Shown here one piece after another: positions 4,800-21,969 of a DNA stretch of 64,000 nt; position 1 is the stretch's first letter; the number at the start of each line of letters is the position of its first letter. The notes beneath the pieces are model-generated. The model made no database searches, was not told where the DNA came from, and saw only the letters and a list, made by a program, of their open reading frames with translations. Source of the stretch: Clostridia bacterium (lineage in GTDB: Bacteria; Bacillota; Clostridia; Oscillospirales; CAG-272). Made by a program: the position numbers and the translations under genes. The stretch lies in NCBI GenBank assembly GCA_017621475.1, contig JAGATA010000031.1:1929-65928 (forward strand). Direction: 5' to 3'.

Positions 4800-7700
4800 T
4801 TAGTACGGGTTATTGATCGTGATAGACACAGGAACGACATATTCTTTACCGTCATAGGTAAGAACAAGCTCCGTTGCTGTAAGAGTGCCTGCAGGGGTTT
4901 TGGAACCATTCCTGTAATCAAGCTCGCTGCTCGAATACAAAGAATATCCAATATATAATGTTTTCTCGCCATCACAACCATTTTTGTTTGTATTGTTTTC
5001 GCCCCAATTATAGCTATTCGTACCATCAGATGTATAGTTTCCACGTCCCCAAGAATCGTACCAAGTTGTATATAATGGGGTACCAGTTCCAAAACTAAGA
5101 GTTGCATCGCTAGCATAACCGGAGTTTAACAACTGAATACTTACTGTAGAAGATTGGTAACAATATCTTTTTGTTTTTGTAAACAATCCAGTTTCGTGTA
5201 TTGTACATTCCATATACACAGTAGCAGATGTGTCCGTTTTACTATTCGTTTTTGTGGTATATCCCTTACCGTCGCTACTTGTATCAACACCCATCGAAGT
5301 ACTAGGACTAACTGCACTAATCTTCACACTCGGGGTTACCGAATAAACACTCAACTTTGGCAACTCAACATCAAATGACGTATTATTCATATCCCTAAGC
5401 GTTATTGTAGCTGTCGGAACATAATCGCCGGCTATCTTGAGCGACAATGCATTGCCTTTAAACGTAATATTATCCGCACTCGTAATTGTAACAAGAGTTT
5501 CCTCTACTGTGCTAGCAGCTTCATAAGTATATCTACCGTTAGCTTTAGTGGTACTCATCTCTTTTTTCAAGGAGAGCGTTACGTTATTAGCAATCTGTTT
5601 GCCTTCAAAGTCCGTAATGGTAAATTCGATTGCGTTAACATTGTGTGATTCCATAAACGCACCTGTTTTTTTGGTAACCTTGCCTGTTGCATCAACATCT
5701 GCTCCATATACAGTTTGAACACCGCCATTGGCTCCGATATTGTGTGTCAATTTATATGTTGCAATCACCTTTATTGTAGTATTGCGATTTGCAAGTTCAT
5801 CTTCAACAACAAAATAGTAGCCGCTTGCCGCTGTTTCAATCATCTGCTCAACCGTCATACTCGTTTCTTCGTCAACTTTATCGGTAATCTCTACCGCGTT
5901 GCCGTTCCCTTTAAAGATAGGTTTAAGCGGGTCTGTTTGGAAGAAATCTATTTCGCCCTCTGCGTTTCTATATGCAACGTTCGTTGCATATACCTCTTTA
6001 AGCGTCCAATAACCGTCCTCGTCGGGAAGAGTGAATATATAATATCCCTCATTTTCCGTATCCTTTTCGGCGCTAATAAGATATTTGGTTGTTGCTCCTT
6101 CAATTTCTTTTTCAAATAAGCCGTAAACGATAGCGGAATCACCGTTTTTGAAGCCAACTGCAACCTGTGCATTGCTTCCGTTTATAACGATAACCTCTTC
6201 ACCGGATGGCAATATCAAGTTGCTAAACTCTGCGGGGTCGCGGGAAATAGCCGTGACAACGGATGCGCTTATTGCTTTGGTAATATTTTCACCGTTAACA
6301 GATGCGCTTACGAATTTATATTCGCCAACACTATCCACGGGGATATAGCCAACGTAGCAACCGCCGTCCGCAGTGCTCCATTCAAGGTCTGCCGTTGCGT
6401 TCTTAGTATAGGTCAACTTCGGCTCTACAAGACCTATTATCTCTTGACCTGTACTGTCGTAAACCTTCATTTTTACAAAGAAATCGTGGCTACGATCAAA
6501 TATAAACTTATAGTCATTTCCAACTTTTTCAAACTCGCCCTCAATCTCGGTAATATCGCAACAGCTATCATCGTGCGTGAGCCATACGGCTACGCTGAGC
6601 TTGGTGCGTACTTCGCGCGTGTAGGTCGAGCCAACTGAATAGTAAAGTCCATCGACCATAATGTTTTCAAGCGTATACGTACCGTCGGAAACAAAAGTAG
6701 CCGTACCCGTATAGCGGCCGCTGCCGCTTTGAGTTTCCGTAAAGTTTATCGTTACGGCAACGTTATCTTCGTTGATGAACACACCTTTAACGCTGCCCGG
6801 GGTAAGAGTTCCGTTTTCATATGCGCTTATATTTACGGAAAAGCTTTCCGTAACGTAGTCTGAAGCGGTCATATATTCGTGCGTCAAGCCCAAATTGGGG
6901 TCACCGCTGAAGCCCGATACGCTGAAGCCGTGAACAATGACCTTTACCGCTTCGGCGTTACCCGTATCGACCACGTTCGTAAGCTTGCGCTCAATACCAT
7001 CTGCAAAAACGCTTCGCAAGATGTATTCGCCGGGGGCGGTGAACGTAGCAGTTGCCGTCCACTTTGTCGGGTCGCTTGCGCTTTGAGTAAACTCAATAGT
7101 TTCCCCGCGTGTACCCTGCGTTGTCGTGATCTTACGCAGGAAGTTTGCTGTAATTGTTTTGGGAGCTTCGCCCTCAACAGAAAGTTCTACCGTTGCAGTG
7201 AAGGATTTTTCTGTATCCTTAAAATAGAATTGGGGGTTTTCCTTACCCTGAGCATCCGTAACCTTTGCCGTTATCTTGAGCGTTTCGGACATAAGCTCTT
7301 CATCGTCAAGGGGCTGGGGCTCATAGGTGTTGCCAAACTGAAGATTGAGCTGACCCTGAATATCGGAGGAAGAAAGCACTTTGTCATTGGAAACAACATC
7401 ACCATCAAGATATACAAGGGCTGTGATGAGCGTAGGTACGTTCTGCTCAAGGCTCATTATCGCGCGGATATCGTCGCCTTCCTCTGTGTCCTCGCCCGTG
7501 TCGATGGCATTTTCATCGAGCATAAGCGGAACAACGTACTTACCGTATTCGGAGAAGCAATATTCCGTTGCAAGGCTTGCCGTAGCAAGGAGGGTTCCGT
7601 TGCTGTCAACAAACGCAACCTTGAAAGCTTTGAGAATGTCAAGTATCTGACCTTTTTCGCCGGGCTCTGCATAAAAAGTATAGCAGCTGCCCATACCCTG

Positions 7701-9890
7701 TGTCGTTCTGTATTCCATTTCGGACATTGTTTCAAGCTCTTCTTCTGTCCAGATTCGGTTTGCGCCAACATAACCCGCAACCTCTTTTGTTTGGAGCTTA
7801 TCGTCGGAGTTTTCGCTCATATCGGGTTCTGTAACAGTGCCTTCAACAGGAGTGTTGCCCATATAGTAGTACCAAACATTTCCCGCGCCGTCTTTCTTGG
7901 GAGCAAAATAGACTTCCTGATCCTCAAAAACAGTATTCTCCATAATGGGGTTGCCATTTTCATCTACAACAGGATTACCGTTTTCGTCAACCTTGGGAGT
8001 TTGCGTGGTTACGTCGGTAACGTAAACCTGATATTCCGTGCCGTCTATAGTAACCTTAACGTCTATATAGGTATATACAACCTCGCCCTCGAGTGTAAGG
8101 AATGACTGCGGAGCGTTTGTACGAAGCCAAAAATCTATGGAAAGACCGTAAGTATCACGTGCAACGTAATCTCTTACAACCTCTTTGAAGCCCGATGCGG
8201 TTTTGGCATTGTCAATGTCACTCTTGATTATACATTTTGTCGTATCACCGGATGCATTTGTAGTAAGCTTGGCATTAATATAGGTAAAACCATTATTAGA
8301 TGCATTATCAATCAAACGATTCGCCAAACCAGACATAGAGCCAGCTACGGTTGCAGCCTTTGCTTTCAAAGACTCTGATTTGATTTTTATAGTAATGTAA
8401 TCTATTATAAGTGATCCTTTGCCAAAGCCAAAAAGCATTTTGTCAATACGCTCAATAAGGCCTGATTGAACTGTAACAGATGATTTTATATTGTCACCGG
8501 GCGTTTTTCCGAGCAAACCGAACAATGCCAAAGCTTCGGTGATCCCTAGTCCTTTTATCCAGTCATTAATAGTTTTGGAAGTACTTCCATCACTAAGTAA
8601 AACTCCGTCCTTTCCATCTATTGTAACAAGATAGTCAACTATCGGTTGTATATTGCCCCAAGTTACATTTGCGCTGCCAACTGTTTGACCGTCCTGGAAC
8701 GTAACGTAACCGTTGTCTTCCATACTTTTTATGCAAGATCTAAGTTTTGTTATATCAGCTATAAAGGGAAAAAGTGCGTTAAATTCATCATTAGATGCAA
8801 GCGCCGTATTAAGCTCCTCGTAAAATTTTTTGTTTGATGTACTTGAATTAACGTTTAATTTGTCTCCCGTAACAACACGTTCAAGACCTTCGATGTCGTC
8901 ACGCTTGTCGTTCATTTCCGCAAGAACTTGCTCCACAGTGGTGCAGAAAACGTCAACACTTTCAAATCTTTCGTACCCATCGATGCCATAAGTGTTTATC
9001 TGGTAAACCTCAAAAATATCGATAAGGGCTTCGCCGATGGGAACCATAACAGCTTCGTCCAAGAATACAAGGAGATCGTAAAAGCCCGCAACGTCATCGG
9101 CACTACATATAACAGTGTTATCAGCCCCTGTAAGAACACCGTCCGCGTAAGAGCTGAGCAAGCCGCCAACCGCCTGCATATAGCGATAATTAGCGCCGCT
9201 AACATTCAAACTAAGGAAATTGCCATTTGCTACGCCTGCATCTTGACCGGCATTACCCAAAGTTGTTTGGTATATAAAATCTTTTACACTATCCGTAGGA
9301 ACATCAACCTCAATATAATCTACAGAAGAAATAGCCTTTATTCCTTTTAAATGGCTTTTTGTGAATTCACTCGACTCAGAATTATACTGCGTATATTCAA
9401 AAGCGTTTATAAGTTCTTTAATACGTCCGTCCACGCCGTACGTTGCGGAATAGAGCGGATGCGCCAAAAGAGAACTTGTATTAAGCGTTGCAGGGCGCAG
9501 CGTAATATTTTCCAAGCCGTAAGAAGCATCCGAAAGGTTAACGATATTACCCCAAGTAAGGTTTTTCTGCGTTATGGAAAGCAAGGAATCACCTATGGCA
9601 GAAGCAGACGGAGGAATAGCAATTACGTTGCCGTCTTCATCAATCATAGGAGTACCATCTTCTTTCAGCAATATATCGCGTGCCAAGGCTATTTCCAAGT
9701 TACCGTTAGCGGCGATAGTGGTTGTCGCTCCGCTTACCTCAGGCGCTACGGAAAGTGTTATCCACGAAAAGGTGGAAACCGTCAGCATAGCAATGGAGAA
9801 AACAAATATCATAAGCGCCGCTATAACGCGCTCGCGGGCGCGTGGGAGCAAGGCTTTATACTTTTGTATTCTTAATTCTGTTTCTTTCAT
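4800..9890 (-). CDS. Giant (1696 aa) secreted fibre-subunit-like protein: SipW-type signal plus an N-terminal ~850-aa module paralogous to the 676-aa protein, then a ~840-aa beta-rich (Ig-like) extension
   Basis: ATG 9890 overlaps the stop of the upstream sipW-like gene (ATGA). N-terminus is basic, then hydrophobic, then STFSWITLSVAPEVSGATTTIAANGNLEIAL. Blocks shared with 18559-20589: NLTWGN(I/L), YGL, YG(V/S)DGRI. Internal motif ALVYLDGDVVSNDKVLSSSDIQGQLNLQF at about nt 7325-7430. No LPXTG and no C-terminal TM. Confidence 0.65.
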   Translation of the reverse strand: MKETELRIQKYKALLPRARERVIAALMIFVFSIAMLTVSTFSWITLSVAPEVSGATTTIAANGNLEIALARDILLKEDGTPMIDEDGNVIAIPPSASAIGDSLLSITQKNLTWGNIVNLSDASYGLENITLRPATLNTSSLLAHPLYSATYGVDGRIKELINAFEYTQYNSESSEFTKSHLKGIKAISSVDYIEVDVPTDSVKDFIYQTTLGNAGQDAGVANGNFLSLNVSGANYRYMQAVGGLLSSYADGVLTGADNTVICSADDVAGFYDLLVFLDEAVMVPIGEALIDIFEVYQINTYGIDGYERFESVDVFCTTVEQVLAEMNDKRDDIEGLERVVTGDKLNVNSSTSNKKFYEELNTALASNDEFNALFPFIADITKLRSCIKSMEDNGYVTFQDGQTVGSANVTWGNIQPIVDYLVTIDGKDGVLLSDGSTSKTINDWIKGLGITEALALFGLLGKTPGDNIKSSVTVQSGLIERIDKMLFGFGKGSLIIDYITIKIKSESLKAKAATVAGSMSGLANRLIDNASNNGFTYINAKLTTNASGDTTKCIIKSDIDNAKTASGFKEVVRDYVARDTYGLSIDFWLRTNAPQSFLTLEGEVVYTYIDVKVTIDGTEYQVYVTDVTTQTPKVDENGNPVVDENGNPIMENTVFEDQEVYFAPKKDGAGNVWYYYMGNTPVEGTVTEPDMSENSDDKLQTKEVAGYVGANRIWTEEELETMSEMEYRTTQGMGSCYTFYAEPGEKGQILDILKAFKVAFVDSNGTLLATASLATEYCFSEYGKYVVPLMLDENAIDTGEDTEEGDDIRAIMSLEQNVPTLITALVYLDGDVVSNDKVLSSSDIQGQLNLQFGNTYEPQPLDDEELMSETLKITAKVTDAQGKENPQFYFKDTEKSFTATVELSVEGEAPKTITANFLRKITTTQGTRGETIEFTQSASDPTKWTATATFTAPGEYILRSVFADGIERKLTNVVDTGNAEAVKVIVHGFSVSGFSGDPNLGLTHEYMTASDYVTESFSVNISAYENGTLTPGSVKGVFINEDNVAVTINFTETQSGSGRYTGTATFVSDGTYTLENIMVDGLYYSVGSTYTREVRTKLSVAVWLTHDDSCCDITEIEGEFEKVGNDYKFIFDRSHDFFVKMKVYDSTGQEIIGLVEPKLTYTKNATADLEWSTADGGCYVGYIPVDSVGEYKFVSASVNGENITKAISASVVTAISRDPAEFSNLILPSGEEVIVINGSNAQVAVGFKNGDSAIVYGLFEKEIEGATTKYLISAEKDTENEGYYIFTLPDEDGYWTLKEVYATNVAYRNAEGEIDFFQTDPLKPIFKGNGNAVEITDKVDEETSMTVEQMIETAASGYYFVVEDELANRNTTIKVIATYKLTHNIGANGGVQTVYGADVDATGKVTKKTGAFMESHNVNAIEFTITDFEGKQIANNVTLSLKKEMSTTKANGRYTYEAASTVEETLVTITSADNITFKGNALSLKIAGDYVPTATITLRDMNNTSFDVELPKLSVYSVTPSVKISAVSPSTSMGVDTSSDGKGYTTKTNSKTDTSATVYMECTIHETGLFTKTKRYCYQSSTVSIQLLNSGYASDATLSFGTGTPLYTTWYDSWGRGNYTSDGTNSYNWGENNTNKNGCDGEKTLYIGYSLYSSSELDYRNGSKTPAGTLTATELVLTYDGKEYVVPVSITINNPY

Positions 9891-10645
9891 TTTTCTGCCT
9901 CCCTTGAGTCAGCTTCATTCGGCGAATCTTCATTTGATTGCTGTTTGCCGTTTTCCGCTTCTATTTCAGCCAAAATTTCTTGTTTGAGCTTTTGGCGGAG
10001 CTCTTCGCGAAGCTTTTCTTCATCTTGTTCCCGCTCCGCTTCATTTATTTCCTGCTTAATAGCTTTAATTTCTTTCGTTATTTTTTTTATGTTTTCCTGC
10101 ATTATGATCGTTACAAGAATTATAACCGGCACGACCACTACAGAAAAAAATCCTATTTTATTCGTCAATATAGAATAAAGTGTTGTTATAAACCCCTCAG
10201 GGCGCAAGATCACGATTATCTTGCCTATAAAATTTTCCTTGGTTACATAAAATCCATCCACGCTGTTGTTTGCATCTCCGCGTGTTACGAGAAGCAATTC
10301 GCCGTCACGGTCCTTTATTTCCGCAACGCGGTGGGTTATTATCTGTCCCGCCATATAAGATTCGCGGGAGAAAAAGCTTATAATATCGCCTTCTTTAATG
10401 CTTTCTATATCCGTCTTTTGAGAAATTATAAGCGAGCCGACCGGCATCGTATCACCCATACTCTCGGAAACAACGCGAAACACGCTACAACCGAAAATAG
10501 TCACATAGCCGTTGGTCTTTATCTGATACATCACAGTGCCGCAGAATAAGATTGCAATGGCAAGCAAAACAGAAGTCGCTATGGAAAAGATTTTTTCCGA
10601 AAGTTTCCTTTCTTGCTTCGGGATATTCACTTCTTCTGTGTTCAT
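9887..10645 (-). CDS. sipW: SipW-type (ER/archaeal-type, S26B) signal peptidase I with C-terminal TM and charged cytoplasmic tail (252 aa)
   Basis: AGGAGAT RBS. N-terminal TM, then catalytic-Ser box VVSESMGDTMPVGSLII, His box QIITHRV and TRGDANNSVD, as in B. subtilis SipW (SGSMEP / THRI / KGDNN). Second TM FFSVVVVPVIILVTIIM, then ~65 aa of E/K/R-rich tail containing ELRQKLKQEILAEIEAE. Confidence 0.75.
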   Translation of the reverse strand: MNTEEVNIPKQERKLSEKIFSIATSVLLAIAILFCGTVMYQIKTNGYVTIFGCSVFRVVSESMGDTMPVGSLIISQKTDIESIKEGDIISFFSRESYMAGQIITHRVAEIKDRDGELLLVTRGDANNSVDGFYVTKENFIGKIIVILRPEGFITTLYSILTNKIGFFSVVVVPVIILVTIIMQENIKKITKEIKAIKQEINEAEREQDEEKLREELRQKLKQEILAEIEAENGKQQSNEDSPNEADSREAEK

Positions 10646-10721: not shown

Positions 10722-12995
10722 TTACACCTCTGTTGTCGGTTCTGTTATTTCTTCCGTTGATACCGCAGGTTCTTCGGAAGGTGCTGTTGTTACTTCTGCG
10801 GAAGTTGTTGCTTCCGTGGAAGTTGTTGCTTCCGTGGAAGTTGTTACTTCTGTAGAAGTTGTTACTTCTGTAGAAGTTGTTACTTCCGCAGTAGCTGTTG
10901 TTGTGGCTGTTGTTGTCGTTGTTTCAGCGGGAGCCGTTGTTGTCGTCGCTGCATCAGCAGAAGCTGTTGTGGTTGTCGATCCTTGGGAGGTTGTTCCCGT
11001 GGGAGCTGTTGTAGTTGTAGTTGTGGTTGTGCCGCTTGTAGATGAACCTGTATCTCCTCCTGTTGTAGAGGTCGGATTATCAAGATCCTCTATTCTATAA
11101 TCGCCGGCTTTCACCGCTGAACTGTTGTAGGTACAAGTATCGTGCTTAAATCCTATGTCGCCAACAACGCAGGTATCTGCAAAAGTATTGTTTTCTGCCT
11201 GAACATTAGTCTTACCGTTGACGTAGATAGCGGATTTATTGACAATGTTCTCGAAAGATGAGCCCGAAACAAAAAGATCTGCGCCGATATTTTTATCATC
11301 CGCAACTTTAAGACCGCCGTAGGAAGTGGAATTTCCGTCAAACGTACAGTTTTTAACGTAATAAGCGGGATATTCTCTTCTTCCGTACTCATTATCAAGG
11401 AATAAGCAATACATATTGATTCCATCTTCCTTAAAGTTGCAGTTTTCAAAACGAGCATCTCCGTACGTTACAACACCGCCGTTAAAATCGCAGTTCGTAT
11501 AAGTTACATCCTTTGCATAAGCATATGTATAAAGTGTGCCACGATTTGCGGTTGTTTCACAAGTATCATCGGCAGTTTTATTGTTGTTAAATACGATATT
11601 AGAGAAAGTCACGGTTGTGCCTGCTCTAACATCATTCACATAATCGTTGAGAGCATCAAAGTTAAATCCGGAAGTTGCTCTTACTTGACCCTGCCAAGCA
11701 TAGCCTGTAGCAACACTGTTGAGGTTTATCTCGGCTTTACCGCTTGCCGTAACCGATGAATCGGCACCTATAATATTGATGCTTACAGGATGTTCGCTTT
11801 CATCACCCTCTAAAACGGGAACACTTTGGAATCGTATCTCACTGCCGAGTATAACGTTATCGTGCAATATCCAAGTTTGGTTATCGGAAACGTAATTATC
11901 CGCGGCAAGCTGCGTGAACACGCCCCAAAGCTCGGCTTTGTTTTCGTCGATGATGGTGTAGTTGCCCGTTGTGCCAAGCACGATACGTCCGTATGACTTA
12001 TCCTGACCTTCGGGGAAGGTCTTGCCCGTTTGGGTAAGCTCAACTTTTTCGGTATTGCAATTTTTAACGACCATTTCGCCGACGTTCGCCGTGCCGACTA
12101 TCTCACCGATGCGCCAACCGCCGTCATCGGTGGATTTAAGTTTTGTATTTGTTACAGTACAGTTTTCCACAACGGTATATGTCCAAGGGTTGTTGCCCGC
12201 GTGACCGATGATGCCGCCAGCGGAGCCTGTTGCTTCTATAGTGCAGTTTTCAACTGAGCAATCCTTAACGGTAACGTAAGTTTTTACGGGGCCGTCATTT
12301 TCATTATTATAGCCCGCAGTCCAACCTATAAGGCCGCCCGTTCTGGAACCTTTGACCGTACTGTTTTTAAGGTGGCAGTTTGTAAGCGTTATTACGTCCA
12401 TAGAATCGGCATAATCAATAAACGCTCCGCTGCCGTTTGAGGTATTTGTGCTTGTAATATTGGAATTTGCGATGGTAAGGTTTTCTATAACTATACCCGA
12501 ACCGCCGGCAAAACCGCCCGCGAACAAGGGGTTCGTTAAGCGAAGACCTATTTCCTTTTTCTCCCCGTTTTCGTCTTGAGTGGGGGCGAGTATTGTGATG
12601 ATATCATCACCGTTCTGACCGTCAACTTGTATAGAAGGCAGCGTCATATTCTCTGCGCTTGCCATATCGATACTGTTAACTATCTTCATAGTAAGATTGC
12701 CGACATCTGCGTTATTTATATAGTTAACGATCCACCAAAGCTGTGCGCCGTTTTCTATAATATAAACGCCTTCCTCGTCTTGCTGTGGCTGTTGATCTAT
12801 ATTGCCTTCCCAGACTTCGTCAAATTCAAATTCCGGGAGTTTCCAAAGTTCTTTGCCTGCCACGCCGAATCCCGCTCCGCCTGTGCTCGGAGATGTGGAA
12901 ATTACCATCCAAGCATATGCCGAAATAACTATAAGTAAAACGGAAACCAGCAGGATATAGACAGATGAAAACAATCTTAACCAAGAATGTTTCAT
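10722..12995 (-). CDS. Secreted right-handed beta-helix-like protein with SipW-type signal motif and Thr-rich repetitive C-terminal tail (757 aa)
   Basis: ATG 12995 overlaps the stop of the upstream gene (ATGA). N-terminus LLVSVLLIVISAYAWMVISTSP. Repetitive N/T/G-rich turns with GGLIGW and AGGIIGH (GLUG-like) and repeated ..NC.(V/F).N.. rungs typical of parallel beta-helices. The last ~130 aa are >50% Thr with (E/A)VTTST repeats. No anchor motif. Confidence 0.6.
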   Translation of the reverse strand: MKHSWLRLFSSVYILLVSVLLIVISAYAWMVISTSPSTGGAGFGVAGKELWKLPEFEFDEVWEGNIDQQPQQDEEGVYIIENGAQLWWIVNYINNADVGNLTMKIVNSIDMASAENMTLPSIQVDGQNGDDIITILAPTQDENGEKKEIGLRLTNPLFAGGFAGGSGIVIENLTIANSNITSTNTSNGSGAFIDYADSMDVITLTNCHLKNSTVKGSRTGGLIGWTAGYNNENDGPVKTYVTVKDCSVENCTIEATGSAGGIIGHAGNNPWTYTVVENCTVTNTKLKSTDDGGWRIGEIVGTANVGEMVVKNCNTEKVELTQTGKTFPEGQDKSYGRIVLGTTGNYTIIDENKAELWGVFTQLAADNYVSDNQTWILHDNVILGSEIRFQSVPVLEGDESEHPVSINIIGADSSVTASGKAEINLNSVATGYAWQGQVRATSGFNFDALNDYVNDVRAGTTVTFSNIVFNNNKTADDTCETTANRGTLYTYAYAKDVTYTNCDFNGGVVTYGDARFENCNFKEDGINMYCLFLDNEYGRREYPAYYVKNCTFDGNSTSYGGLKVADDKNIGADLFVSGSSFENIVNKSAIYVNGKTNVQAENNTFADTCVVGDIGFKHDTCTYNSSAVKAGDYRIEDLDNPTSTTGGDTGSSTSGTTTTTTTTAPTGTTSQGSTTTTASADAATTTTAPAETTTTTATTTATAEVTTSTEVTTSTEVTTSTEATTSTEATTSAEVTTAPSEEPAVSTEEITEPTTEV
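10783..10890. repeat. Tandem 18-bp repeat, ~6 units, encoding the (E/A)(V/A)TTS(T/A) tail repeats
   Basis: Plus-strand units GAAGTTGTTGCTTCCGTG x2 (10801-10836), GAAGTTGTTACTTCTGTA x2 (10837-10872) and GAAGTTGTTACTTCCGCA (10873-10890), preceded by a degenerate unit at 10783-10800. Confidence 0.9.
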
Positions 12996-14836: not shown

Positions 14837-16411
14837 TCAGTTTACTTTTTTGAGGTATTCGATGTAATCCTTGCAAATGCTCATTGCGTTCTTGCCGAAG
14901 AGCTTATCAAGGTATGTGGAGAATTTTGTGAGTTCTTCTTTCATAAATCCAAGGCTCAAGGACTCGAATTTACGCAAAACTTTCTTTGCTACCATAAAGT
15001 CAACGGCTTCTATTTCCGTACCGCCGCAGGCGATGTAGCAAGGAACATAATCTTTAAGCTGTTTCATAATACGGTTACCGAAAGCAAGACGGAAATTCGC
15101 GATAAGATATTCGTTCATCTGCTCGAGCTTCGCCATTGTATCTTCGGAAACAGTATAATTTTCTTTTGCTTCCTTAAACATTGCATTAAGGTGGTCTGTG
15201 GAAATTGTGATAGCTTCTGTTTCCTCTGCTTCAAAAGCATCCGCACGGGTATCAAGGTCGATCGGAATAGCACGGTCATAAACCTTATCGGCAACGGCGA
15301 AGGTAGAGTCGTCGTTGTTGATAGTACCGATGAACCATACGTTGTTCGGTATCTGAACCTTACCGTTTTCGATAAGGCAGGGGTCGTTATCCCACATAGC
15401 GGAAACGATGTCTATAAGCCATTCTTCCTGGCGGGGCATTTCGAGGATGGAGAGCATTTCCGCGAAGTAATATTCAACGCGGGCGATGTTCATTTCATCG
15501 AGAATTATGAGGTTGGGGTCTCTGTAATAGTTGGATTCGTAAATTGTACGAAGGAAATCTGTTTCGGTATATTTTTTTGTAAATTCGTTGAAGTAACCGT
15601 AAAGCTCCGTACGTTCACGCCAAGCAGGCTGAACGGAAACAACGGTGGAGTCTTTCTGAACAAACTTACCGAAAGCGTACGGCAAGGACGTTTTACCTGT
15701 ACCGGAAATACCCTGCAAGATAATGATTCGCGCCGTACCGAACGCGGCTATAAAGTGTCTTATAAGCTTGAGCTCATAGTAAAGATGGAGCTTCGATGCC
15801 GCAAAGTTGCGGAAGCGTTCGCAGAACTGAGGTAGGGTTATGTCGTTATCGTAAACGGGATATTGATATTCCGTCTTGTAAAAGTTATCCACAGAAGTAA
15901 GGCGGAAGAAGCGGCTCGTTGTGGGGTCAACACACGGAGAGAGAGGTGTGTTGCGGTTGGGGTTTGCGGAGGAAAACTCTGCTTCCTCCCCTTCCTTTTC
16001 TTCTTCGGGAAGTTCCGCTTCGCCGGGCTTGCCGCCAAGCTCTGCCAAGCGCATTGCAAGAAGCTTATCTTTTTCGTAATTTGCACGGATAAGCTCTCTC
16101 TGCAAGTTTTTGACCTGCTTTTCCATTTCCTCAAACTTTTTAACGGGAACGCGGAAACGGAATACGCGGCGCAAAAGCTTCACAAGAAGTATCACCAGCA
16201 CGATTATCAGCGCAATGAGCGCGATGTTCGCAATAAGGAGAAGTATCCAGTCCGTTCTCGTGAACTCGCTTTCGTTCGCCTTGATGATCTCCATTCTGCC
16301 GGGGAAGTTCAGCAAGCGCACCAAGAAATCCCATATCGCGCCGAATATATCAAGGAAGGCGTAAAACACCATCCCTATATCCTGAATAAAATATCGCAAA
16401 AAATTATCCAT
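14837..16411 (-). CDS. Membrane-anchored McrB-family (AAA_5) AAA+ NTPase, probably a GTPase (524 aa)
   Basis: AGAGGAG RBS 7 nt before ATG 16411 (track TTG 16417 less likely). N-terminal TM WILLLIANIALIALIIVLVILLV, short coiled coil and an acidic linker. Then Walker A ILQGISGTGKTS, Walker B LIILDEMN with ARVEYYFAEMLSILE, FIGTINNDDST (NxxD-like) and DKVYDRA. This is the motif set of McrB-type NTPases. Confidence 0.7.
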   Translation of the reverse strand: MDNFLRYFIQDIGMVFYAFLDIFGAIWDFLVRLLNFPGRMEIIKANESEFTRTDWILLLIANIALIALIIVLVILLVKLLRRVFRFRVPVKKFEEMEKQVKNLQRELIRANYEKDKLLAMRLAELGGKPGEAELPEEEKEGEEAEFSSANPNRNTPLSPCVDPTTSRFFRLTSVDNFYKTEYQYPVYDNDITLPQFCERFRNFAASKLHLYYELKLIRHFIAAFGTARIIILQGISGTGKTSLPYAFGKFVQKDSTVVSVQPAWRERTELYGYFNEFTKKYTETDFLRTIYESNYYRDPNLIILDEMNIARVEYYFAEMLSILEMPRQEEWLIDIVSAMWDNDPCLIENGKVQIPNNVWFIGTINNDDSTFAVADKVYDRAIPIDLDTRADAFEAEETEAITISTDHLNAMFKEAKENYTVSEDTMAKLEQMNEYLIANFRLAFGNRIMKQLKDYVPCYIACGGTEIEAVDFMVAKKVLRKFESLSLGFMKEELTKFSTYLDKLFGKNAMSICKDYIEYLKKVN

Positions 16412-16445
16412 TGCCAAACTCCTCTTTGTTCTCTATCGGAGGCTC

Positions 16446-17300
16446 TTACTGCTCCGTTTTGTCTTTGTTTTCGTCTTTATTCTCGGCATCCGTCGCGTTC
16501 TGCTTTGCGATATCTGCCATAAGCTCTGCTTTGAGCTTCTCGCGCAATTCGGCTTCTATCGCCGCCCTACGAATTTCGTCTCTTTCTTTTTCGTCTTTGA
16601 TCTGTGTTTCAATGAGGTCTTCCGTTCTGCCTCTTTCCTGCTCGTACTTGATGAGCATCTTCACGTTCTGGTACTCAAACAAAACGCGGAAGAACTGTAC
16701 AAGGTGGAATATGAAGAATATAAGCACGGGGATGATAACAAGAAGGAAGAAGCCCGTGGACGTCTGGAGGTAGTCAACCACTTTGCCAAGACCGGGGATA
16801 CGCATTCCCGTCCATTTGCCGACAACGTCGGCTGCGTGGACGTTGTTATAGTCGGCGGTTCCTGCTTTATCGCCCGATGTCTGGAAGGATGTGAAGTTGT
16901 TTATGCTTTCGGGGTAAATAGCCGTAATTCTATGGGTGTTAAGGATAAGCTGGCCCTGTTCATTTGTCCAGAAAGTGATAACATCACCAACCTTGAGCTT
17001 TTCAACTTCTTCGTTGTTTTTGATAGTCGTATCGATAATAAGGTCTCCCGGTTTAAGCGTAGGGTACATAGAGTCCGTCTGAATAGAAAGGAAGCTTATG
17101 CCGAAAATGCTGGGAATTCCGCTGCCGGATGTGGAAACGAAAGAAATATACGTGGAAAACGCTGCCAAAACGATTGCCACTATCAACAGCACGTTAACGA
17201 CAATGTTTATTATCTTTTTGACGTCTTTTTTGTTTTCCTTTTTGTTTGTAGCCGCGCCTGCATCCGTGGGGGCGGCGTTTGTTTCGATTTTATTTTCCAT
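16446..17300 (-). CDS. sipW: SipW-type (S26B) signal peptidase I, second paralog, with C-terminal TM and long charged tail (284 aa)
   Basis: AGGAGAG RBS. N-terminal TM IVVNVLLIVAIVLAAF. Ser box LSIQTDSMYPTLKPGDLII, His box LNTHRITAI, and SGDKAGTAD. C-terminal TM FFLLVIIPVLIFFIFHLV, then ~85 aa of E/K/R-rich tail containing ELREKLKAELMADIAKQ. Confidence 0.75.
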   Translation of the reverse strand: MENKIETNAAPTDAGAATNKKENKKDVKKIINIVVNVLLIVAIVLAAFSTYISFVSTSGSGIPSIFGISFLSIQTDSMYPTLKPGDLIIDTTIKNNEEVEKLKVGDVITFWTNEQGQLILNTHRITAIYPESINNFTSFQTSGDKAGTADYNNVHAADVVGKWTGMRIPGLGKVVDYLQTSTGFFLLVIIPVLIFFIFHLVQFFRVLFEYQNVKMLIKYEQERGRTEDLIETQIKDEKERDEIRRAAIEAELREKLKAELMADIAKQNATDAENKDENKDKTEQ

Positions 17301-17361
17301 AACTCTCTCCTAAAAATTTTTATTATATATTTATTATGTTTTTCTCACATAAAAAATTTTC

Positions 17362-18378
17362 TTACTTAATTTCATCTTCTTCAAGGCCTGTATCGGGTTT
17401 TCTTTCGGCGTGGAATTGCACGTTTGCAAGCATCATTGCCTCTTTTCCGATTTCGTTGGTGCAGTCAACATCTTGACCTTCAAGCCAAATATATATATCT
17501 ATCTTTGCGGTGCAGTTTTTATCAAGGTCGAAAAGATGGTTGTCATCCAAAAATTCGCCGTAATCAAAAACCACAACTCCTTTTTGCACAGGATTTGTCT
17601 CCAACCAAGCGGTGGATTCCTGCCTTATAAGGCGGTCTGCGGGAACAAGACTTTCCGTGCCGTCCATACTCGGGGTCGGTTCATAATCAGTGGTATAATC
17701 GAGGTGGTTGTCACAGTTTGGCTCGTATATTATAAACAAGGGTTCTTCATCTATTTGTTTGCCATCCGGGTCGAAGCGCGTAACACGGAAACCAATTCTC
17801 ATTGCGCTTTGTGCGCCCTTGCCGCCGTTGTTGTGAATAATTTCTTCATCGTTCCAAACGGGCGTGCCGACAAGGTACGTGCCGGAATTTTCTATATTTT
17901 TGGAAAGCTCCACTTCAACGTCCTCGTCCGTGCGGGCATAAACGGTAAAAGCAACGTAATACCCTTCCGCATCCTCGCGGTTAGCGTTTTGAGCGTCGTT
18001 AAGCTCTTTGGAAATGGAAGCTATTCTGCCATCCAAACCGAAGTTTGTGGCGTAAAAGGTTTTGTTTATATCTGAATAAGTAACGGGTTTAAGCGTGGAA
18101 TTTTGCGTAAATTTTTTGTTATAGTCGAGGTGCCACCCCCAAGCTTCCTCGTCATCGGAAAGCTCCCAGGATATTTGCAAGCCGACGCTGCTGTTTACAA
18201 AAACAGCCATATCGTTTACTTTTGGAGTTTTACTCAAAGAAAACCAGGTGTATGTAGCGGTGGAGAGTAAAACAAGCAAAACAAGCATACCGTATAAAAG
18301 CTTTATAAATATGTGTCTGCGCTTTTTTTGTTTTGGTGTGGAAATTGCTTGTGAGCTCAATTTATTTTCTCCTTTCAT
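17362..18378 (-). CDS. Secreted TasA-like-motif protein, small paralog (338 aa); candidate minor fibre subunit
   Basis: N-terminus KKRRHIFIKLLYGMLVLLVLLSTATYTWFSLSKTPKV (SipW-cognate-like). C-terminal motif IDIYIWLEGQDVDCTNEIGKEAMMLANVQF. Internal block EGYYVAFTVYARTDEDVEVEL parallels ERYFAYTFYIRNDGASTVGY of the 348-aa protein. The RBS is weak. Confidence 0.55.
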   Translation of the reverse strand: MKGENKLSSQAISTPKQKKRRHIFIKLLYGMLVLLVLLSTATYTWFSLSKTPKVNDMAVFVNSSVGLQISWELSDDEEAWGWHLDYNKKFTQNSTLKPVTYSDINKTFYATNFGLDGRIASISKELNDAQNANREDAEGYYVAFTVYARTDEDVEVELSKNIENSGTYLVGTPVWNDEEIIHNNGGKGAQSAMRIGFRVTRFDPDGKQIDEEPLFIIYEPNCDNHLDYTTDYEPTPSMDGTESLVPADRLIRQESTAWLETNPVQKGVVVFDYGEFLDDNHLFDLDKNCTAKIDIYIWLEGQDVDCTNEIGKEAMMLANVQFHAERKPDTGLEEDEIK

Positions 18379-18452
18379 AGGGTTTTGCGGTGCACCGCCG
18401 TGTCGAGCAAAGACCTACACTCCAAATCAGCCTTTGCTCAAATTCGGTGTAT

Positions 18453-18484
18453 CCACCGCACAGGGCAAAAGCCCTGTGCGGTGG
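18453..18484 (-). terminator. Perfect 14-bp hairpin downstream of the 676-aa gene (possible attenuating terminator or RNA-stabilising element)
   Basis: CCACCGCACAGGGC-AAAA-GCCCTGTGCGGTGG, 75 nt after the stop at 18559. There is no clean U-tract on the minus strand (ATACACCGAATTT follows). Confidence 0.4.
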
Positions 18485-18558
18485 GTTATTGAACATTCAG
18501 TTGTTGCGATAACGCACATCTATGTATCACCGCATTTCTTGTTTAATCCGTGTAGGGA

Positions 18559-20589
18559 TTAGCCTTGGCCGCCAGCGCCTGCGCCGCCACCTTCACCGCC
18601 CTGTGCGGGGGTCTGGTTCTGAAGAGGTGCGTAAGGCATAGGTGTAAGTGTCTTGTCAGAGCTGAACTGGAGGTTAAGTGTACCAGTCATAGAAGAAGCA
18701 GCATTTGCTACCATTGTGTTGTCAACAAGGTCGCCGTCAAGGTAAACGTATGCAGAAAGACGAGTTGCTTGATTCTTTGTAAGAGCCATAATTTCAGCTT
18801 TACCGGATGTGCCGTCATCTTTCCAGCTAATAGTTTCAGTAGCTCCTTCGCCTGTTGTAGTAGTAATCTTGATACGATAATCGTGGTTTTCGCCTGTTCC
18901 TTTGTCTTCAAAAGTAAAGTTGCAAAGTCTTACATTTGCCGTTACCTCTGTACCAACTACAGCTTCATTTTCGGTATCAAGAAGACCAACAGCTACAATG
19001 TTACCCGAAGCATCCGTGAAAACGATACGAATAGCAGACATAAGTTCAAGAACATTCGCTGTTGTAAAGTCGGTTGTCAAAGATTCAAAAGTCATCGTGC
19101 TGCCGTGACCCATTGTTTCCTGAGAGCCGCCCTCTGTGTAGATACGGTTTACAGGATTTGTCTGAAGCATAAGTTTAGAGTCAGCCGCATTTGTACGGAA
19201 AGCAAGGTCAACAACATAGCCATAGAAGTCTGTGAGCTTAGGAGTAGAGCTTGTATTGGAAGAAGGTCCCTTTGCAGGAACAGCAGCGTAAATGTCATAT
19301 GAAACAGTTACTTTCGTTGTCATTCTCGCAGCCATATTATCAAGAGCCAAACCACCGTATTCAATTTTTTCGATAGTAACATCTGCGCTATACTCGCCGC
19401 AAACCTTAGCTATATTAGAATATACGCCACCGTTATCATCCAATTCAACAAGAACGCCTTGCGAGGCAACCTTACTAATAATGTCGCCTAAATTGTTTTT
19501 AACGTCATTTGCAGCATAGCCATTCAGCTTTGCACCTTCAATGTTTACAAGATCTGTATCAATCAAAACGTCTGAAACTTCATCCCAAGTTACCGCCGTA
19601 ATATCATTGTTGTGAGTAGTTTTTACTGTTGCCAATGCTGTTCCAGCATTAGTTATAGCCGTTGCATTGATTGTATATTGAGTATATGCATCTTTTACTG
19701 CTTGAGGAATTGAATTATACCAAGCCGTACCCTCAGCCATCAACGCAGAAAGTCCTTGTGTTTCCAACGCCGCCTTTGCCGTGCCATAATCATTTTCTGG
19801 CGTAGTTTGATTAGCAATAGCAAAAACTGCAACTATGTAAGCGCGTATTGCTTTTTCAATTTCAGCATTTGCTGCTCCAAGCTGTGTTATAAGGTTATCA
19901 GCGCAAGAAAGGTCGTAAGTAGTAGTACTATCCTCCGTAGCCTTTTTAGAAAGAATACTTGCAAGTGCAGAACCATTCGCCGTCAAAGACTGAGCAGCTT
20001 TTGTTTTTGCGGAATCAACAGCTGTGGAAATTTCGTATTTAGCATTACGGAAATCCATCTGTTGCTGGGACATTGTTGTGGATGTACCAATAGCACGAAC
20101 GCCGTAGTCGTCATTCTGCAAGAACGACTGTGTCTGCGTATCATACGTAGCCAATATTGTATTAGCGGTAAGTGTTGAAATTCTACCGTCAGAACCATAT
20201 GTAGGCGTAAGCAAAGGAAGCGATGCCACCTGATAATCCGTGCCGCTAAGACCAATATTCAGTCTTGACGGAAGCAAAGACACCTTAGAAAGTCCATAAG
20301 CTTCGTGATTGAGGTCAATAAGGTTACCCCAAGTAAGGTTTCTATCAACCAATGCCTTGGTGCTATCATTAACAGTAGAATCCGGAATAGTTTCAGACCA
20401 AAGCGCGATTTCAAGGTTACCGTTAGCACCTACAGCTGTGTAGATACCCGTTACTTCGGGCGCTGTGGAAAGTGTAAACCACGCGTAAGACGAAGAAATA
20501 ACCATAAAGAACGCAACCAAGAGCATAGCAACTGCTGCCATAAGTTTACTCTTGATGTTTAAAAAACTTTTTTCACGAGTTTTTTCCAT
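18559..20589 (-). CDS. Secreted TasA-like-motif protein (676 aa); candidate major fibre subunit, paralog of the N-terminal half of the 1696-aa protein
   Basis: AAGGAGAG RBS. N-terminus KSKLMAAVAMLLVAFFMVISSSYAWFTLSTAPEVTGIYTAVGANGNLEIAL. C-terminal AYVYLDGDLVDNTMVANAASSMTGTLNLQF, followed by a Pro- then Gly-rich tail ...TPAQGGEGGGAGAGGQG. Ala/Thr-rich and Cys-poor composition typical of extracellular proteins. Confidence 0.6.
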   Translation of the reverse strand: MEKTREKSFLNIKSKLMAAVAMLLVAFFMVISSSYAWFTLSTAPEVTGIYTAVGANGNLEIALWSETIPDSTVNDSTKALVDRNLTWGNLIDLNHEAYGLSKVSLLPSRLNIGLSGTDYQVASLPLLTPTYGSDGRISTLTANTILATYDTQTQSFLQNDDYGVRAIGTSTTMSQQQMDFRNAKYEISTAVDSAKTKAAQSLTANGSALASILSKKATEDSTTTYDLSCADNLITQLGAANAEIEKAIRAYIVAVFAIANQTTPENDYGTAKAALETQGLSALMAEGTAWYNSIPQAVKDAYTQYTINATAITNAGTALATVKTTHNNDITAVTWDEVSDVLIDTDLVNIEGAKLNGYAANDVKNNLGDIISKVASQGVLVELDDNGGVYSNIAKVCGEYSADVTIEKIEYGGLALDNMAARMTTKVTVSYDIYAAVPAKGPSSNTSSTPKLTDFYGYVVDLAFRTNAADSKLMLQTNPVNRIYTEGGSQETMGHGSTMTFESLTTDFTTANVLELMSAIRIVFTDASGNIVAVGLLDTENEAVVGTEVTANVRLCNFTFEDKGTGENHDYRIKITTTTGEGATETISWKDDGTSGKAEIMALTKNQATRLSAYVYLDGDLVDNTMVANAASSMTGTLNLQFSSDKTLTPMPYAPLQNQTPAQGGEGGGAGAGGQG

Positions 20590-20639
20590 TTTTGATTTTT
20601 TCTCTCCTTTTCAAAGAAATTTTTTATTACAAATTTGCG

Positions 20640-20905
20640 GGGTCGGTGTTGGAGTGCGCCGCCTTCGCAAACAGTAAACTGTTTTAGGGACTTATTATCC
20701 CCTTTACCGCAAGGGAAAGGGGACTTTAACTAGTTAAAGTCCGAGTTTTGTATCTTTTCTCTTTCGCCTCCCTCCGGGAGGGAGGTGGCACGAGCCTTTG
20801 CGAGTGACGGAAGGAGAGCGCGTGAACATCAAATTTTCACAATACTTTGATGTCGCGCAGGCTTCTCCACCGCTTCGCGGAGCCCCCTCTCGGAGGGTGC
20901 CTTTT
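20640..20905. repeat. Intergenic array of GC-rich palindromes (same family as 3906-3978 and 4380-4700)
   Basis: CCCCTTTACC-GCAA-GGGAAAGGGG (20699-20722), a perfect 22-bp palindrome GGACTTTAACTAGTTAAAGTCC (20721-20742), CCTCCCT-N5-AGGGAGG (20767-20785), and CCCCCTC-TCG-GAGGGTG near 20883-20899. Confidence 0.75.
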
Positions 20906-20922
20906 TAGAAAAGAGGTTAAGA

Positions 20923-21969
20923 TCAATAATCTTCCTCGGTCACGAGCTTGAACGTGACTTCCACGCCAAGGTGTCCGCCGATAAGATCGTTTGTGCAATC
21001 GGGGTCGTTGCCTTCCAGCCACAGAACAACTGTGTATTTATGTACCTCCTGCGGTACTACGTCCGGCACCGTTCCCGATGTTATAACGAAGTCAGATTCA
21101 AAAGGTATGGGATAGAAATAATAAAGCGGTGCGGGGAGTTCCTCCTCTGTTTCCAGCTTTTTATACTGTTCTTCGGGGTATTTTGCGTTTTCATAGAAAG
21201 GACAGGTACGGAAACCCGTATATCTGCCTCTTTCTGCCGCCTCCGCCACGACCTGCGCGCTCGGAATGACTTCGGAACCTCCGTCATCGTCCGCGTGTGC
21301 ATAGAAAGTCATTTCGCCGTCGCGGAAAAGCATGACCCAAACCGCTTCGGAAAGGTCCTTACTTTCCGAGTTTATCGCGACCTGATAATCATAGCCAACG
21401 GTGGATGCACCGTCGTTTCTTATGTAGAAAGTGTAAGCAAAGTATCTCTCCCCGTTGTGGGAACCGTCTATCATATCAACGTTTGCGGGAATATCGGTAA
21501 ACGTGGTGTCAAGGGTTCCTTCCACGGGAATACTGTAGAGATATGAGGTAGGGTTATCGAACGTTTTCGTGTCGCTTATGGTAAAGCCCTCTCGGAAAAG
21601 CTCGTTCGTTGTGTTAATTGTGAAGTGTCCCCTCATTCTTGTGATAAGGGACATAAGGAAGAATGCCGTAAGCAGCGCCGCCAGCGCCCCAAGGAGCGCC
21701 CAAAGCCATTTTCCGCGCATAAGCCAAGGCAAAAATCCCAGGAATTTTCGCTTATCGAAGTACAAACCGAGGCTGGATGCGGTAAGCTCAAAATCCTTTT
21801 TGCTTTTTAAGCCTGCCGCGCGCATTTCGCGGCGAAGCTTTTTTCTGCCGGCTTTTATCTCCTGCACCTCATTTTCGGTGAGGACGACACCGGCACGCTT
21901 CTTTTTAAAAAGCCTTTTTTGTTTCTTCTCCGCCGCGGCAGCGGACGGAGTTTGCTCTTTCTTACTCAT
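20923..21969 (-). CDS. Type-II membrane protein with long basic cytoplasmic N-terminus and extracellular TasA-like-motif domain (348 aa); candidate anchor or base subunit
   Basis: ATG 21969 overlaps the stop of the upstream HD-GYP/EAL-like gene by 8 nt. Residues 1-85 are K/R-rich. TM WLWALLGALAALLTAFFLMSLI. C-terminal motif YTVVLWLEGNDPDCTNDLIGGHLGVEVTF is shared with the 338-, 676- and 1696-aa proteins. Confidence 0.55.
   Translation of the reverse strand: MSKKEQTPSAAAAEKKQKRLFKKKRAGVVLTENEVQEIKAGRKKLRREMRAAGLKSKKDFELTASSLGLYFDKRKFLGFLPWLMRGKWLWALLGALAALLTAFFLMSLITRMRGHFTINTTNELFREGFTISDTKTFDNPTSYLYSIPVEGTLDTTFTDIPANVDMIDGSHNGERYFAYTFYIRNDGASTVGYDYQVAINSESKDLSEAVWVMLFRDGEMTFYAHADDDGGSEVIPSAQVVAEAAERGRYTGFRTCPFYENAKYPEEQYKKLETEEELPAPLYYFYPIPFESDFVITSGTVPDVVPQEVHKYTVVLWLEGNDPDCTNDLIGGHLGVEVTFKLVTEEDY

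Follow-up and report, generated by a model that had tools for sequence, protein, structure and literature searches.

In Bacillus and in Clostridium perfringens, the operons tapA-sipW-tasA and sipW-bsaA place a dedicated SipW-type signal peptidase beside the genes of its substrates. A link between signal peptidases and proteins of the McrBC type has been named by Bell et al. (eLife 2024, PMC11090510), who reported McrB GTPases with an NxD motif as a large clade “fused to a domain homologous to FtsB” and introduced, within three sentences, a class called CoCoPALM, in which membrane-anchored McrBC is linked to signal peptidases and the NxD motif is followed by D or E; further detail was deferred to a forthcoming paper. 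Here, we analyzed a 64-kb stretch of DNA from a Clostridia bacterium (hereafter “the window,” meaning the whole stretch) and describe an array of genes on its minus strand, at positions 4800–21969, which is referred to as the cassette. The cassette is a member of the named, uncharacterized CoCoPALM class, and we read it as a SipW-processed surface fiber or adhesin array that would work by the mechanism proposed below, a reading to which we give a probability of roughly 0.55.

With CoCoPALM the cassette shares an NxD-type McrB-like GTPase with an N-terminal transmembrane (TM) region and coiled coil, an adjacent McrC (DUF2357) homologue with a coiled coil, and signal-peptidase genes within the same operon, whereas the published account comes without a gene list, substrates, structures, or function. 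The architecture is thus not wholly undescribed, since the class already has a name. This settles part of a question raised by the initial annotation of this DNA, which could not tell whether the arrangement was new: the link of McrBC to signal peptidases has been named before, but in passing alone. In its biological sense the term CoCoPALM was found just in PMC11090510 and its preprint, with no follow-up, and the text-format supplements of the CoCoNuT paper hold nothing on it. Literature searches on PDC-M26, on SipW together with McrB, and on SipW together with donor-strand pili in Firmicutes yielded no description of the cassette. As far as we can tell, the subunit families, the A-type anchor, the EAL/HD-GYP component, the hairpin behind B676, and the dockerin/FIVAR neighbors (Table 1) are described here for the first time.

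The array consists of nine co-directional minus-strand open reading frames (ORFs), which run from 21969 to 4800 and encode proteins of 348, 676, 338, 284, 526/524, 603, 757, 252, and 1696 amino acids (aa). The initial annotation had counted ten ORFs; the co-directional minus-strand arrangement stands, but ten is reached only with the HD/EAL gene, and there is no credible candidate for a tenth ORF within the spacers of the array. The intergenic gaps agree with its description (333 nt at 20590–20922, 180 nt at 18379–18558, 61, 28–34, 33, and 76 nt), and so are the two ATGA overlaps (12992–12995 and 9887–9890) and the 8-nt overlap of the HD/EAL gene (21962–23428) with the first ORF of the array. 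The limits of the array itself hold as well, but the conserved block reaches further upstream, to 30841. Overall, that observation is partly confirmed and essentially correct, and its interpretation is partly supported, whereby the reading as a surface-assembly system is reasonable.

Table 1. Features of the cassette and its upstream neighbors; positions refer to the window.
Feature	Position	Strand	Basis
Z, 488 aa, degenerate HD-GYP plus degenerate EAL-like	21962–23428	-	Pfam, 72-member family alignment, synteny
A348, bitopic membrane protein	20923–21969	-	sequence, family alignment, hhalign, synteny
333-nt spacer upstream of B676	20590–20922	-	sequence
B676, proposed major subunit	18559–20589	-	homologues, alignment, AlphaFold2, Foldseek
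180-nt structured spacer after B676	18379–18558	-	folding energy, conservation
C338, small subunit	17362–18378	-	homologues, AlphaFold2, hhalign
SipW1, 284 aa, archaeal/ER-type signal peptidase I	16446–17300	-	TIGR02228, SipW model, catalytic boxes
Membrane-anchored McrB-like NxD-type AAA+ NTPase	14837–16417	-	AAA_5, McrB structure match, motifs
F603, McrC-like partner	12992–14803	-	DUF2357 in family, adjacency
G757, variable-position subunit	10722–12995	-	Pfam GLUG, repeats, synteny
SipW2, 252 aa, archaeal/ER-type signal peptidase I	9887–10645	-	TIGR02228, catalytic boxes
I1696, proposed adhesin-bearing subunit	4800–9890	-	BLASTP versus B676, sequence
U376, FIVAR-like repeats, TM anchor	23573–24703	-	tblastn, Pfam
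V2041, lipobox-like LAGC, type I dockerin	24716–30841	-	tblastn, Pfam

Gene order was compared in two sets of loci. For the first, one genome per species was searched with two exact peptide patterns, which led to at least 142 relatives, and 80 loci (L001–L080) were kept; these are metagenome-assembled genomes (MAGs) of gut and rumen Clostridia (Oscillospiraceae, Acutalibacteraceae, Lachnospiraceae, and others). tblastn yielded a common order on one strand, namely Z, A348, B676, C338, SipW1, the nucleoside triphosphatase (NTPase), F603, a variable gene, SipW2, and a terminal adhesin-like gene. Z was present in 74 of the 80 loci, A348 in 76, B676 in 80, C338 in 69, SipW1 in 68, the NTPase in 62, F603 in 59, and SipW2 in 66, whereby the shortfalls are mostly truncated contigs. 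The recurrence of this order (59–76 of 80 independent loci) is far beyond chance. In most loci a paralogue that resembles C338 (~450 aa) and shares the N- and C-terminal motifs takes the variable position, and the terminal position is held by a ~640-aa protein that carries the N-terminal motif described below and Beta_helix/Pectate_lyase_5 domains. G757, which was itself present in just 6–7 of the 80 loci, and I1696 are lineage-specific replacements. For the second set, 15 divergent NTPase representatives, most of them with a predicted anchor, led to 80 metagenome loci, which were searched with hidden Markov models built from the first set; the 35 loci with enough flank were counted. Among these NTPase-anchored loci, an McrC-like gene was present in 35, SipW in 33, an A-like gene in 33, and a B/C-like gene in 32. 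Their subunits are minimal, at 250–340 aa; examples of the N- and C-termini are TATFAWFTTD and WFEGQDVDC, respectively, and neither Pfam nor NCBIfam gave a match to them.

The linkage of peptidases, motif-bearing proteins, and NTPase pair that the initial annotation had expected is thus found in both locus sets, and its idea of one conserved surface-assembly cassette agrees with the same gene order across loci. Because the NTPase pair keeps its position in the 80-locus as well as in the 35-locus synteny, it is an integral part of the cassette, and an inserted defense island is ruled out in both sets. The McrB/McrC ancestry of the pair, taken in isolation, would also fit a chance insertion of a McrBC-like defense pair into an unrelated adhesin operon. 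This explanation is refuted by synteny: the pair lies at the same position in 59–62 of the 80 loci, which are all those long enough, SipW and A-/C-like genes flank it in 33 of the 35 divergent loci, and one ATGA overlap translationally couples F603 to G757. A different arrangement was seen in L081–L086 and L089 (e.g., L086:10001–12612), where an anchored NTPase and a ~365-aa McrC-like partner lie among housekeeping (pgk-, gpmI-, and lepA-like) genes.

In four exported proteins, B676, C338, G757, and I1696, the N-terminal TM helix has the ending [ST]-[YFW]-[AST]/W-[FIM]-[TS], where the slash marks the putative cut. The motifs that had been quoted for these ORFs were recovered in all four, directly after the hydrophobic helix, and a search with the pattern [STAG][YFW][ASTG]W[FLIMYV][TSVN] confined them to these four among the 41 long ORFs of the window; the near and far counts of this motif were 74/587 versus 5/205. 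In B676 the TM helix is followed by SSSYA/WFTLSTAPEVTGIYTAVGANGNLEIAL (SYAWFT at 20473–20490), and the C-terminal strands read VYLDGD...LNLQF. Homologues of B676 number at least 2698 as cluster representatives, all of them unnamed and free of Pfam domains. The family alignment (101 sequences, mean ~42% identity) contains ~30 invariant positions between residues 15 and 63; they occupy one face of the TM helix (K15, L16, A19, M22, L23, and M29) and continue for ~25 residues past the putative cut. Such conservation of the N-terminus exceeds the needs of a throw-away signal peptide, and the invariant helix face, an uncommon trait among signal peptides, suggests that the helix has a specific partner within the membrane. 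The AlphaFold2 model of B676 (predicted local distance difference test, pLDDT, 86.4; predicted template-modeling score, pTM, 0.77) shows a beta-sandwich as its core, into which a helical segment of ~170 aa is inserted. In this monomer model the conserved segment 34–55 is unstructured (pLDDT <50), which counts for the assembly reading.

C338 combines a TM helix and the motif ATYT/WFSLS (18238–18255) with a C-terminal IWLEGQDVDCTN (17470–17487); its 619 homologues are annotated hypothetical, every one, and its model (pLDDT 90.1, pTM 0.85) consists of the TM helix and an all-beta domain. By hhalign, the first ~120 residues of the C338 family are homologous to those of the B676 family (probability 96.3%, E 1.9e-9), and the last ~75 residues of the A348 family to those of the C338 family (88.6%, E 2.7e-6), so that the sharing of modules among several exported proteins noted before is borne out at both ends. 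A348 has a conserved basic cytoplasmic N-terminus (~85 aa), a single TM helix without a cleavage motif, and an extracellular beta domain that ends in WLEGNDPDC; we propose that it is an uncleaved base or anchor. G757 carries the motif SAYA/WMVIS (12903–12920) ahead of a GLUG/beta-helix-like body (Pfam GLUG, E 1.6e-5). Its Thr-rich (TSTEVT-type) C-terminal tail is encoded by 18-nt and 30-nt tandem DNA repeats at 10786–10978 and is likely a glycosylated or length-variable linker. I1696 begins with a B676-like module (residues 1 to ~860; motif STFS/WITLS at 9756–9773), which was matched to B676 by BLASTP with E 1e-25 at the N-terminus and 3e-10 in the C-terminal core. Four ORFs had been described as sharing a C-terminal strand motif; all quoted motifs are present, but in I1696 the motif is internal, since VYLDGD...LNLQF at ~825–852 closes the B676-like module and ~830 further, apparently beta-rich residues lie beyond it. 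The 348-, 676-, 338-, 603-, and 1696-aa proteins gave no match in Pfam, NCBIfam, or PADLOC scans.

B676 is best taken as the major subunit and the C-like proteins as minor subunits. The adhesin-type domains of the terminal subunits (GLUG, Beta_helix/Pectate_lyase_5, and Flg_new with CBM26) count for an adhesin array. The same proteins could also be monomeric adhesins that are merely sorted and secreted, with the N-terminal module as a peptidase tag and the NTPase pair as a quality-control or regulatory device. This is the main rival explanation: a cognate peptidase plus tag would follow the logic of sortase/LPXTG or exosortase/PEP-CTERM, the C-terminal domains (beta-helix, Ig-like, CBM26) are highly diverse and cargo-like, and the subunit models gave no significant match to a filament fold. 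We nevertheless consider it rather unlikely, since the paralogues are homologous over ~120 residues and invariant for ~25 residues past the cut, which exceeds a cleavage tag, since the C-termini share another module, found in the uncleaved A348 as well, and since a conserved post-gene hairpin marks one paralogue, as in major structural subunits. A further protein of this kind was seen at L118:17148–20342 (1064 aa), where a hydrophobic helix is followed by VSAWVET, which is outside the strict N-terminal motif, and by Listeria-Bacteroides (Flg_new) repeats and CBM26, a starch-binding module. On account of this CBM26, carbohydrate particles may be the target of these structures.

Both peptidases of the array scored above the cutoff of TIGR02228 (51.85 bits), SipW1 with 77.5 bits (E 1e-21) and SipW2 with 88.5 bits (E 4.1e-25), and SipW1 matched the SipW model with E 2.3e-30. 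In SipW1 the Ser box DSMYPT (17058–17075), the THR His box, and a KGDNN-type Asp box are conserved among 64 sequences; in SipW2 the Ser box ESMGDT (10448–10465), the THR His box, and the GDAN Asp box are conserved among 50. Since the three boxes are kept in 64 and 50 family members, both enzymes look active. SipW1 also has a second TM helix, and its charged cytoplasmic tail, VQFFRVLFEYQNVK..KYEQERGRTEDLIE, is conserved; SipW2 likewise ends in a charged tail. The two are archaeal/ER-type (SipW-type, S26B) signal peptidases, as had been claimed, and are SipW-type rather than orthologues of SipW, because neither reaches the 190 required by the Bacillus SipW equivalog model.

The exported proteins had been called TasA-style, and this is not supported as a statement of homology or fold. 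No subunit, including the minimal 250–340-aa forms, matched PF12389 (Peptidase_M73/camelysin) at E ≤ 0.1–1. Against 48 aligned TasA family members, all of them PF12389, hhalign gave probabilities of 0.2% for the C338 family and 0.9% for the B676 family; with 73 minimal subunits it gave 3.4%, whereby the signal peptide alone was aligned (pairwise E 0.013, weak). TasA was not found in profile searches of the PDB with the subunit families, and it was not among the top 50 Foldseek hits of the whole B676 and C338 models, helical insert included. TasA homology of the exported proteins is therefore not supported. What the comparison does offer is a register: KrklissVaMLlva.i.L.TATYAWFT aligns with siKKKLglGVASAALGLSLVGGGTWAAFND of TasA, which is known to be cleaved between A27 and A28. 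By the TasA register the cut would therefore fall just ahead of the invariant Trp, and positions -1 and -3 are small residues. The alignment lends modest support to a SipW-type cleavage site at this position and none to a TasA-type mature fold.

Thus, it is quite improbable that the cassette is an expanded member of the TasA/camelysin-SipW family with divergent TasA-fold subunits joined by donor-strand exchange. For such a relationship speak the adjacent SipW-type peptidases, the cleavage region in the TasA register (T-[YW]-A/[AW]-F-[TN]), strand-like motifs, located past the cut and in the C-terminal region, that resemble the first and last strands of TasA, and weak Foldseek matches to TasA-like archaeal filament subunits (7ueg, E 0.098; 9dlo, E 0.19); the missing PF12389, TIGR04088, and camelysin matches of all subunits, the absence of TasA from both structure searches, and the low hhalign probabilities speak against it, as does the NTPase, which is absent from TasA systems. 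At the level of operons, tapA-sipW-tasA and sipW-bsaA share with the cassette the dedicated peptidase and a T-[aromatic]-A/x-F site in the same register, and an uncleaved or anchoring accessory protein is plausible (A348, compared with TapA, whose role is described in PMC10151520). They differ in that the subunits of the cassette are without detectable TasA sequence or fold homology, and in that it has two peptidases instead of one, subunits of 338–1696 aa, an NTPase pair, and a cyclic di-GMP (c-di-GMP)-type protein.

The NTPase ORF encodes 526 aa (the public gene call starts at ATG 16411 and gives 524 aa), with one to two N-terminal TM segments and a coiled coil ahead of an AAA_5 module. Its N-terminus is hydrophobic at ~57–80 and continues with basic residues and, at ~93–125, a charged helix of heptad-like pattern. 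Walker A (GISGTGKT) lies at 15689–15712, Walker B (IILDEMN) at 15488–15508, and GTINNDDS, which is invariant in 43 family members and aligns to MNTADRS of McrB, at 15305–15328. AAA_5 was detected in 43/43 family members, with the window protein alone at 16.5 bits, below the Pfam cutoff of 22, and the family profile found McrB structures alone in the PDB (6hz4, E 6e-4 over 160 residues). The prediction of a membrane-anchored McrB-type NTPase is thus substantiated, and the protein is integral to the cassette. NTPase representatives number 8360 at E ≤ 1e-3 and 760 at E ≤ 1e-30, most of which share just residues ~165–525 and have other N-termini. NxD is followed by D/E in 132 of 150 representatives (101 NxDD, 31 NxDE), and a TM segment ahead of Walker A was predicted in 88 of 141 relatives. 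The NTPase is the most conserved gene of the cassette (67–73% identity across loci).

F603 has a conserved ~380-aa N-terminal region of the DUF2357 type and a ~220-aa E/R/K-rich low-complexity helix. DUF2357, which is the N-terminal domain of McrC, was detected in 11/43 family members (best E 4.1e-8), with F603 itself below threshold, and a fragment in the same 90% cluster is named “DUF2357 domain-containing protein” at NCBI. F603 adjoins the NTPase in 59/80 loci and in 35/35 divergent loci. Nuclease families (McrC PD-(D/E)xK) gave no match in the 43 family members, and no nucleic-acid-binding or nuclease domain was found in either protein. With Escherichia coli McrBC (6hz4, 6ut6) the pair has in common the AAA_5 core, the Walker A and B motifs, the McrB-type sensor, and a DUF2357 partner encoded immediately downstream. 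It differs by NxD instead of NxxD, by an anchor and coiled coil in place of the DNA-binding N-terminus, by the E/R/K helix in place of the PD-(D/E)xK nuclease, and by a surface-protein context rather than one of methylation and defense.

Another possibility is that the pair belongs to an anti-phage or conflict system of the McrBC radiation, in which it would sense infection while the surface proteins are effectors or modulated phage receptors. The NTPase module matches the PADLOC candidate PDC-M26A (E 3.5e-44, partial coverage), whereby PDC stands for an untested “phage defence candidate” identified by guilt-by-embedding, and its clade has been described as CoCoNuT-like. We regard this as very unlikely. 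Neither protein has a nuclease or nucleic-acid-binding domain, a membrane anchor replaces the DNA-binding N-terminus of McrB, the neighbors encode surface proteins, and the GC content resembles that of the surroundings. Furthermore, the syntenic position is stable and NTPase identity is kept at 67–73% across Clostridia families, which is not the patchy pattern of defense genes. A non-defense precedent exists in PcdA of Staphylococcus aureus, a McrB-family AAA+ protein co-opted for division-plane selection and thus for a membrane-proximal, non-restriction role; it acts in cell division, and no McrC-like partner, peptidases, or exported subunits are reported for it (PMC10602043).

The initial annotation had placed a c-di-GMP-type protein at the head of the array, and Z, which is syntenic in 74/80 loci, agrees with this. 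Z is cytoplasmic and matches Pfam HD_5 (E 5.8e-13), while its EAL match of 26 bits is below the cutoff (31.3). Among the 72 family members HD is changed to HQ (YHQLGK) and HHE to HME (QHMERWDGSGYP), GYP is retained (22946–22963), the EAL motif reads YEA.PW, and the downstream signature positions are not conserved. Since the HD, HHE, and EAL signatures are degenerate, Z is likely a c-di-GMP sensor rather than an enzyme. Degenerate c-di-GMP receptor proteins of the LapD and FimX type control surface structures. Z resembles them as a cytoplasmic protein with degenerate c-di-GMP-turnover domains that is encoded with a protease- or NTPase-bearing adhesion apparatus; it differs as an HD-GYP-like plus EAL-like protein and predicted receptor, and divergent loci use an intact stand-alone EAL instead. 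Such EAL proteins (~250 aa, Pfam E 1e-25 to 1e-49; e.g., L093:5427–6182, L094:581–1330, L095:5907–6659, and L152:7776–8522) stand immediately ahead of the A-like gene, in place of the fused Z, in 16/46 divergent loci; a c-di-GMP-type component is thus recurrent but not universal. Judging by these domains, the cassette is probably under c-di-GMP control.

Two long spacers enclose B676. The 180-nt spacer behind it contains 14-bp and 13-bp GC-rich hairpins without a T-run and has a minimum free energy of -77.8 kcal/mol (z = -7.8). Among the B-to-C spacers of the 80 loci, a 50-nt window at or below -25 kcal/mol was present in 56/64, whereas only 5/64 coding controls reached even ≤ -20 kcal/mol. 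The hairpins may act as an attenuator or as a 3′ stabilizer of the mRNA, raising expression of B676 over that of the downstream genes; this pattern fits a longer operon headed by a major structural subunit with abundant expression. Several short hairpins lie in the 333-nt spacer ahead of B676, together with a good Shine-Dalgarno sequence, and this spacer is possibly an internal promoter or 5′ untranslated region; no minus-strand match to a sigma-70-like consensus was found within it, in a scan that is uninformative for both long spacers. Rfam revealed no family anywhere in the window, including these two spacers, and hence no c-di-GMP riboswitch ahead of B676.

From these data we propose the following sequence of steps. 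The precursors would be inserted via Sec as N-in/C-out membrane proteins, and SipW1 and SipW2 would cut them after the small residue that precedes the invariant Trp. The freed conserved N-terminal segment, together with the shared C-terminal strands, could then join the subunits to a surface fiber or adhesin array. In this array B676 would be the abundant major subunit, C338 and the protein at position 7 minor or adaptor subunits, and G757 and I1696 the adhesive subunits (in other loci beta-helix, Ig-like, or CBM proteins), with the uncleaved A348 as membrane base. On the cytoplasmic face a McrB-like hexamer and its McrC-like partner might gate or drive processing and assembly by hydrolysis of GTP or another NTP, possibly via the conserved cytoplasmic tails of SipW1 and A348, and the HD-GYP/EAL protein would impose c-di-GMP control.

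Several observations weigh against this proposal. The subunit models have no significant structural neighbors by Foldseek: B676 and C338 against the PDB, and C338 against viral structures, gave nothing at E ≤ 1e-3. The SipW-cognate signal model TIGR04088, named in the initial annotation as a check, had no match among the window proteins (E ≤ 0.1) or the minimal subunits (E ≤ 1). No FtsB/DivIC Pfam match was found at the N-terminus of the NTPase in 43 members. The role given here to the NTPase is pure inference, and its wider clade is otherwise associated with defense. In the loci of the L081–L086 type there is no detectable SipW or subunit gene beside the NTPase pair, and these may represent a CoCoPALM relative with a different function.

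The best Foldseek matches of both subunit models were generic jelly-roll domains, and nothing meaningful was found when the PDB was searched with family profiles of B676, C338, and F603. The sole filament proteins in the Foldseek lists were the bundling pilin AbpA of Pyrobaculum (7ueg) and CanA of Pyrodictium (9dlo), which share with the subunits a beta-sandwich and a signal-peptidase-I-type signal, but these matches are not significant (probabilities 0.25 and 0.18, template-modeling scores 0.1–0.3). To our knowledge, no NTPase belongs to these archaeal donor-strand filament systems. Two established pilus types were rejected. Sortase-assembled pili do not apply, as no LP.[TSA]G motif occurs in any of the 12 cassette proteins and no sortase family matched. 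Type IV/Tad pili do not apply either, as neither a prepilin peptidase nor a PilB/TadA-type ATPase family was found among the cassette proteins, the peptidases are of the Ser/His type, the NTPase belongs to AAA_5, and the hydrophobic helix carries the motif at its C-terminal end.

A more far-reaching version of the surface-array reading is tentative, and we hold it to be less probable than its negation: the cassette could define a new class of Gram-positive filament with an unsolved fold, in which subunits polymerize through the new N-terminus left by SipW, driven or gated from the cytoplasm by a membrane-anchored McrBC-derived GTPase under c-di-GMP control, and which attaches the abundant, largely uncultured gut Clostridia to dietary polysaccharide particles or to each other. 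If a fiber is indeed formed, it would add a fourth assembly route to the three by which Gram-positive surface filaments arise (sortase pili, type IV pili, and TasA-type fibers), and the first that uses a McrBC-derived GTPase. The NTPase pair is an apparent case of exaptation of a restriction motor for a membrane process, with an anchor for the DNA-binding domain and a charged helix for the nuclease. The subunits combine confident models with a lack of structural relatives, all under the annotation “hypothetical.” Among gut and rumen Clostridia the cassette is abundant, and its carriers are for the most part known as MAGs only (at least 2698 B676 and 760 NTPase representatives, the latter at E ≤ 1e-30, and at least 142 species-level genomes). 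CBM26, the pectate-lyase-like beta-helices, and the co-conserved dockerin protein point to a possible link to the colonization of fiber or starch. For CoCoPALM, a class without published content beyond its name, a concrete parts list is now given. It is this lack of published content, together with abundance, missing structural relatives, and the exaptation of a restriction motor, that keeps the cassette of interest.

Upstream of Z, U376 and V2041 follow on the same strand in most sufficiently flanked loci of the first set (tblastn; V2041 in 49 loci), and they were absent from the divergent loci inspected. U376 has a signal peptide, FIVAR-like repeats (FIVAR, E 2.9e-4), and a C-terminal TM anchor, and V2041 ends in Dockerin_1 (E 1.5e-6). 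The two suggest a cohesin-dockerin-like surface display linked to the cassette; no cohesin domain was detected in U376. Just downstream of the cassette, at 3988–4656 on the minus strand, lies an ORF that, judged from sequence alone, is a DUF559-like small endonuclease-type gene; its true start is probably an internal Met, as the long N-terminal extension looks spurious. It is followed at 2102–3889 (minus strand) by a gene for a 595-aa BspA-type leucine-rich repeat (LRR) surface protein (LRR_5, E 7e-52). These two genes are not syntenic with the cassette (0 and 3 loci). In L043 and L053, no C338, SipW, or NTPase gene was present within the 10 kb examined; there, three tandem B676-like genes stand right after an A348-like gene, encoding 657, 832, and 1932 aa at L043:10001–20520 and 805, 763, and 1900 aa at L053:9992–20586.

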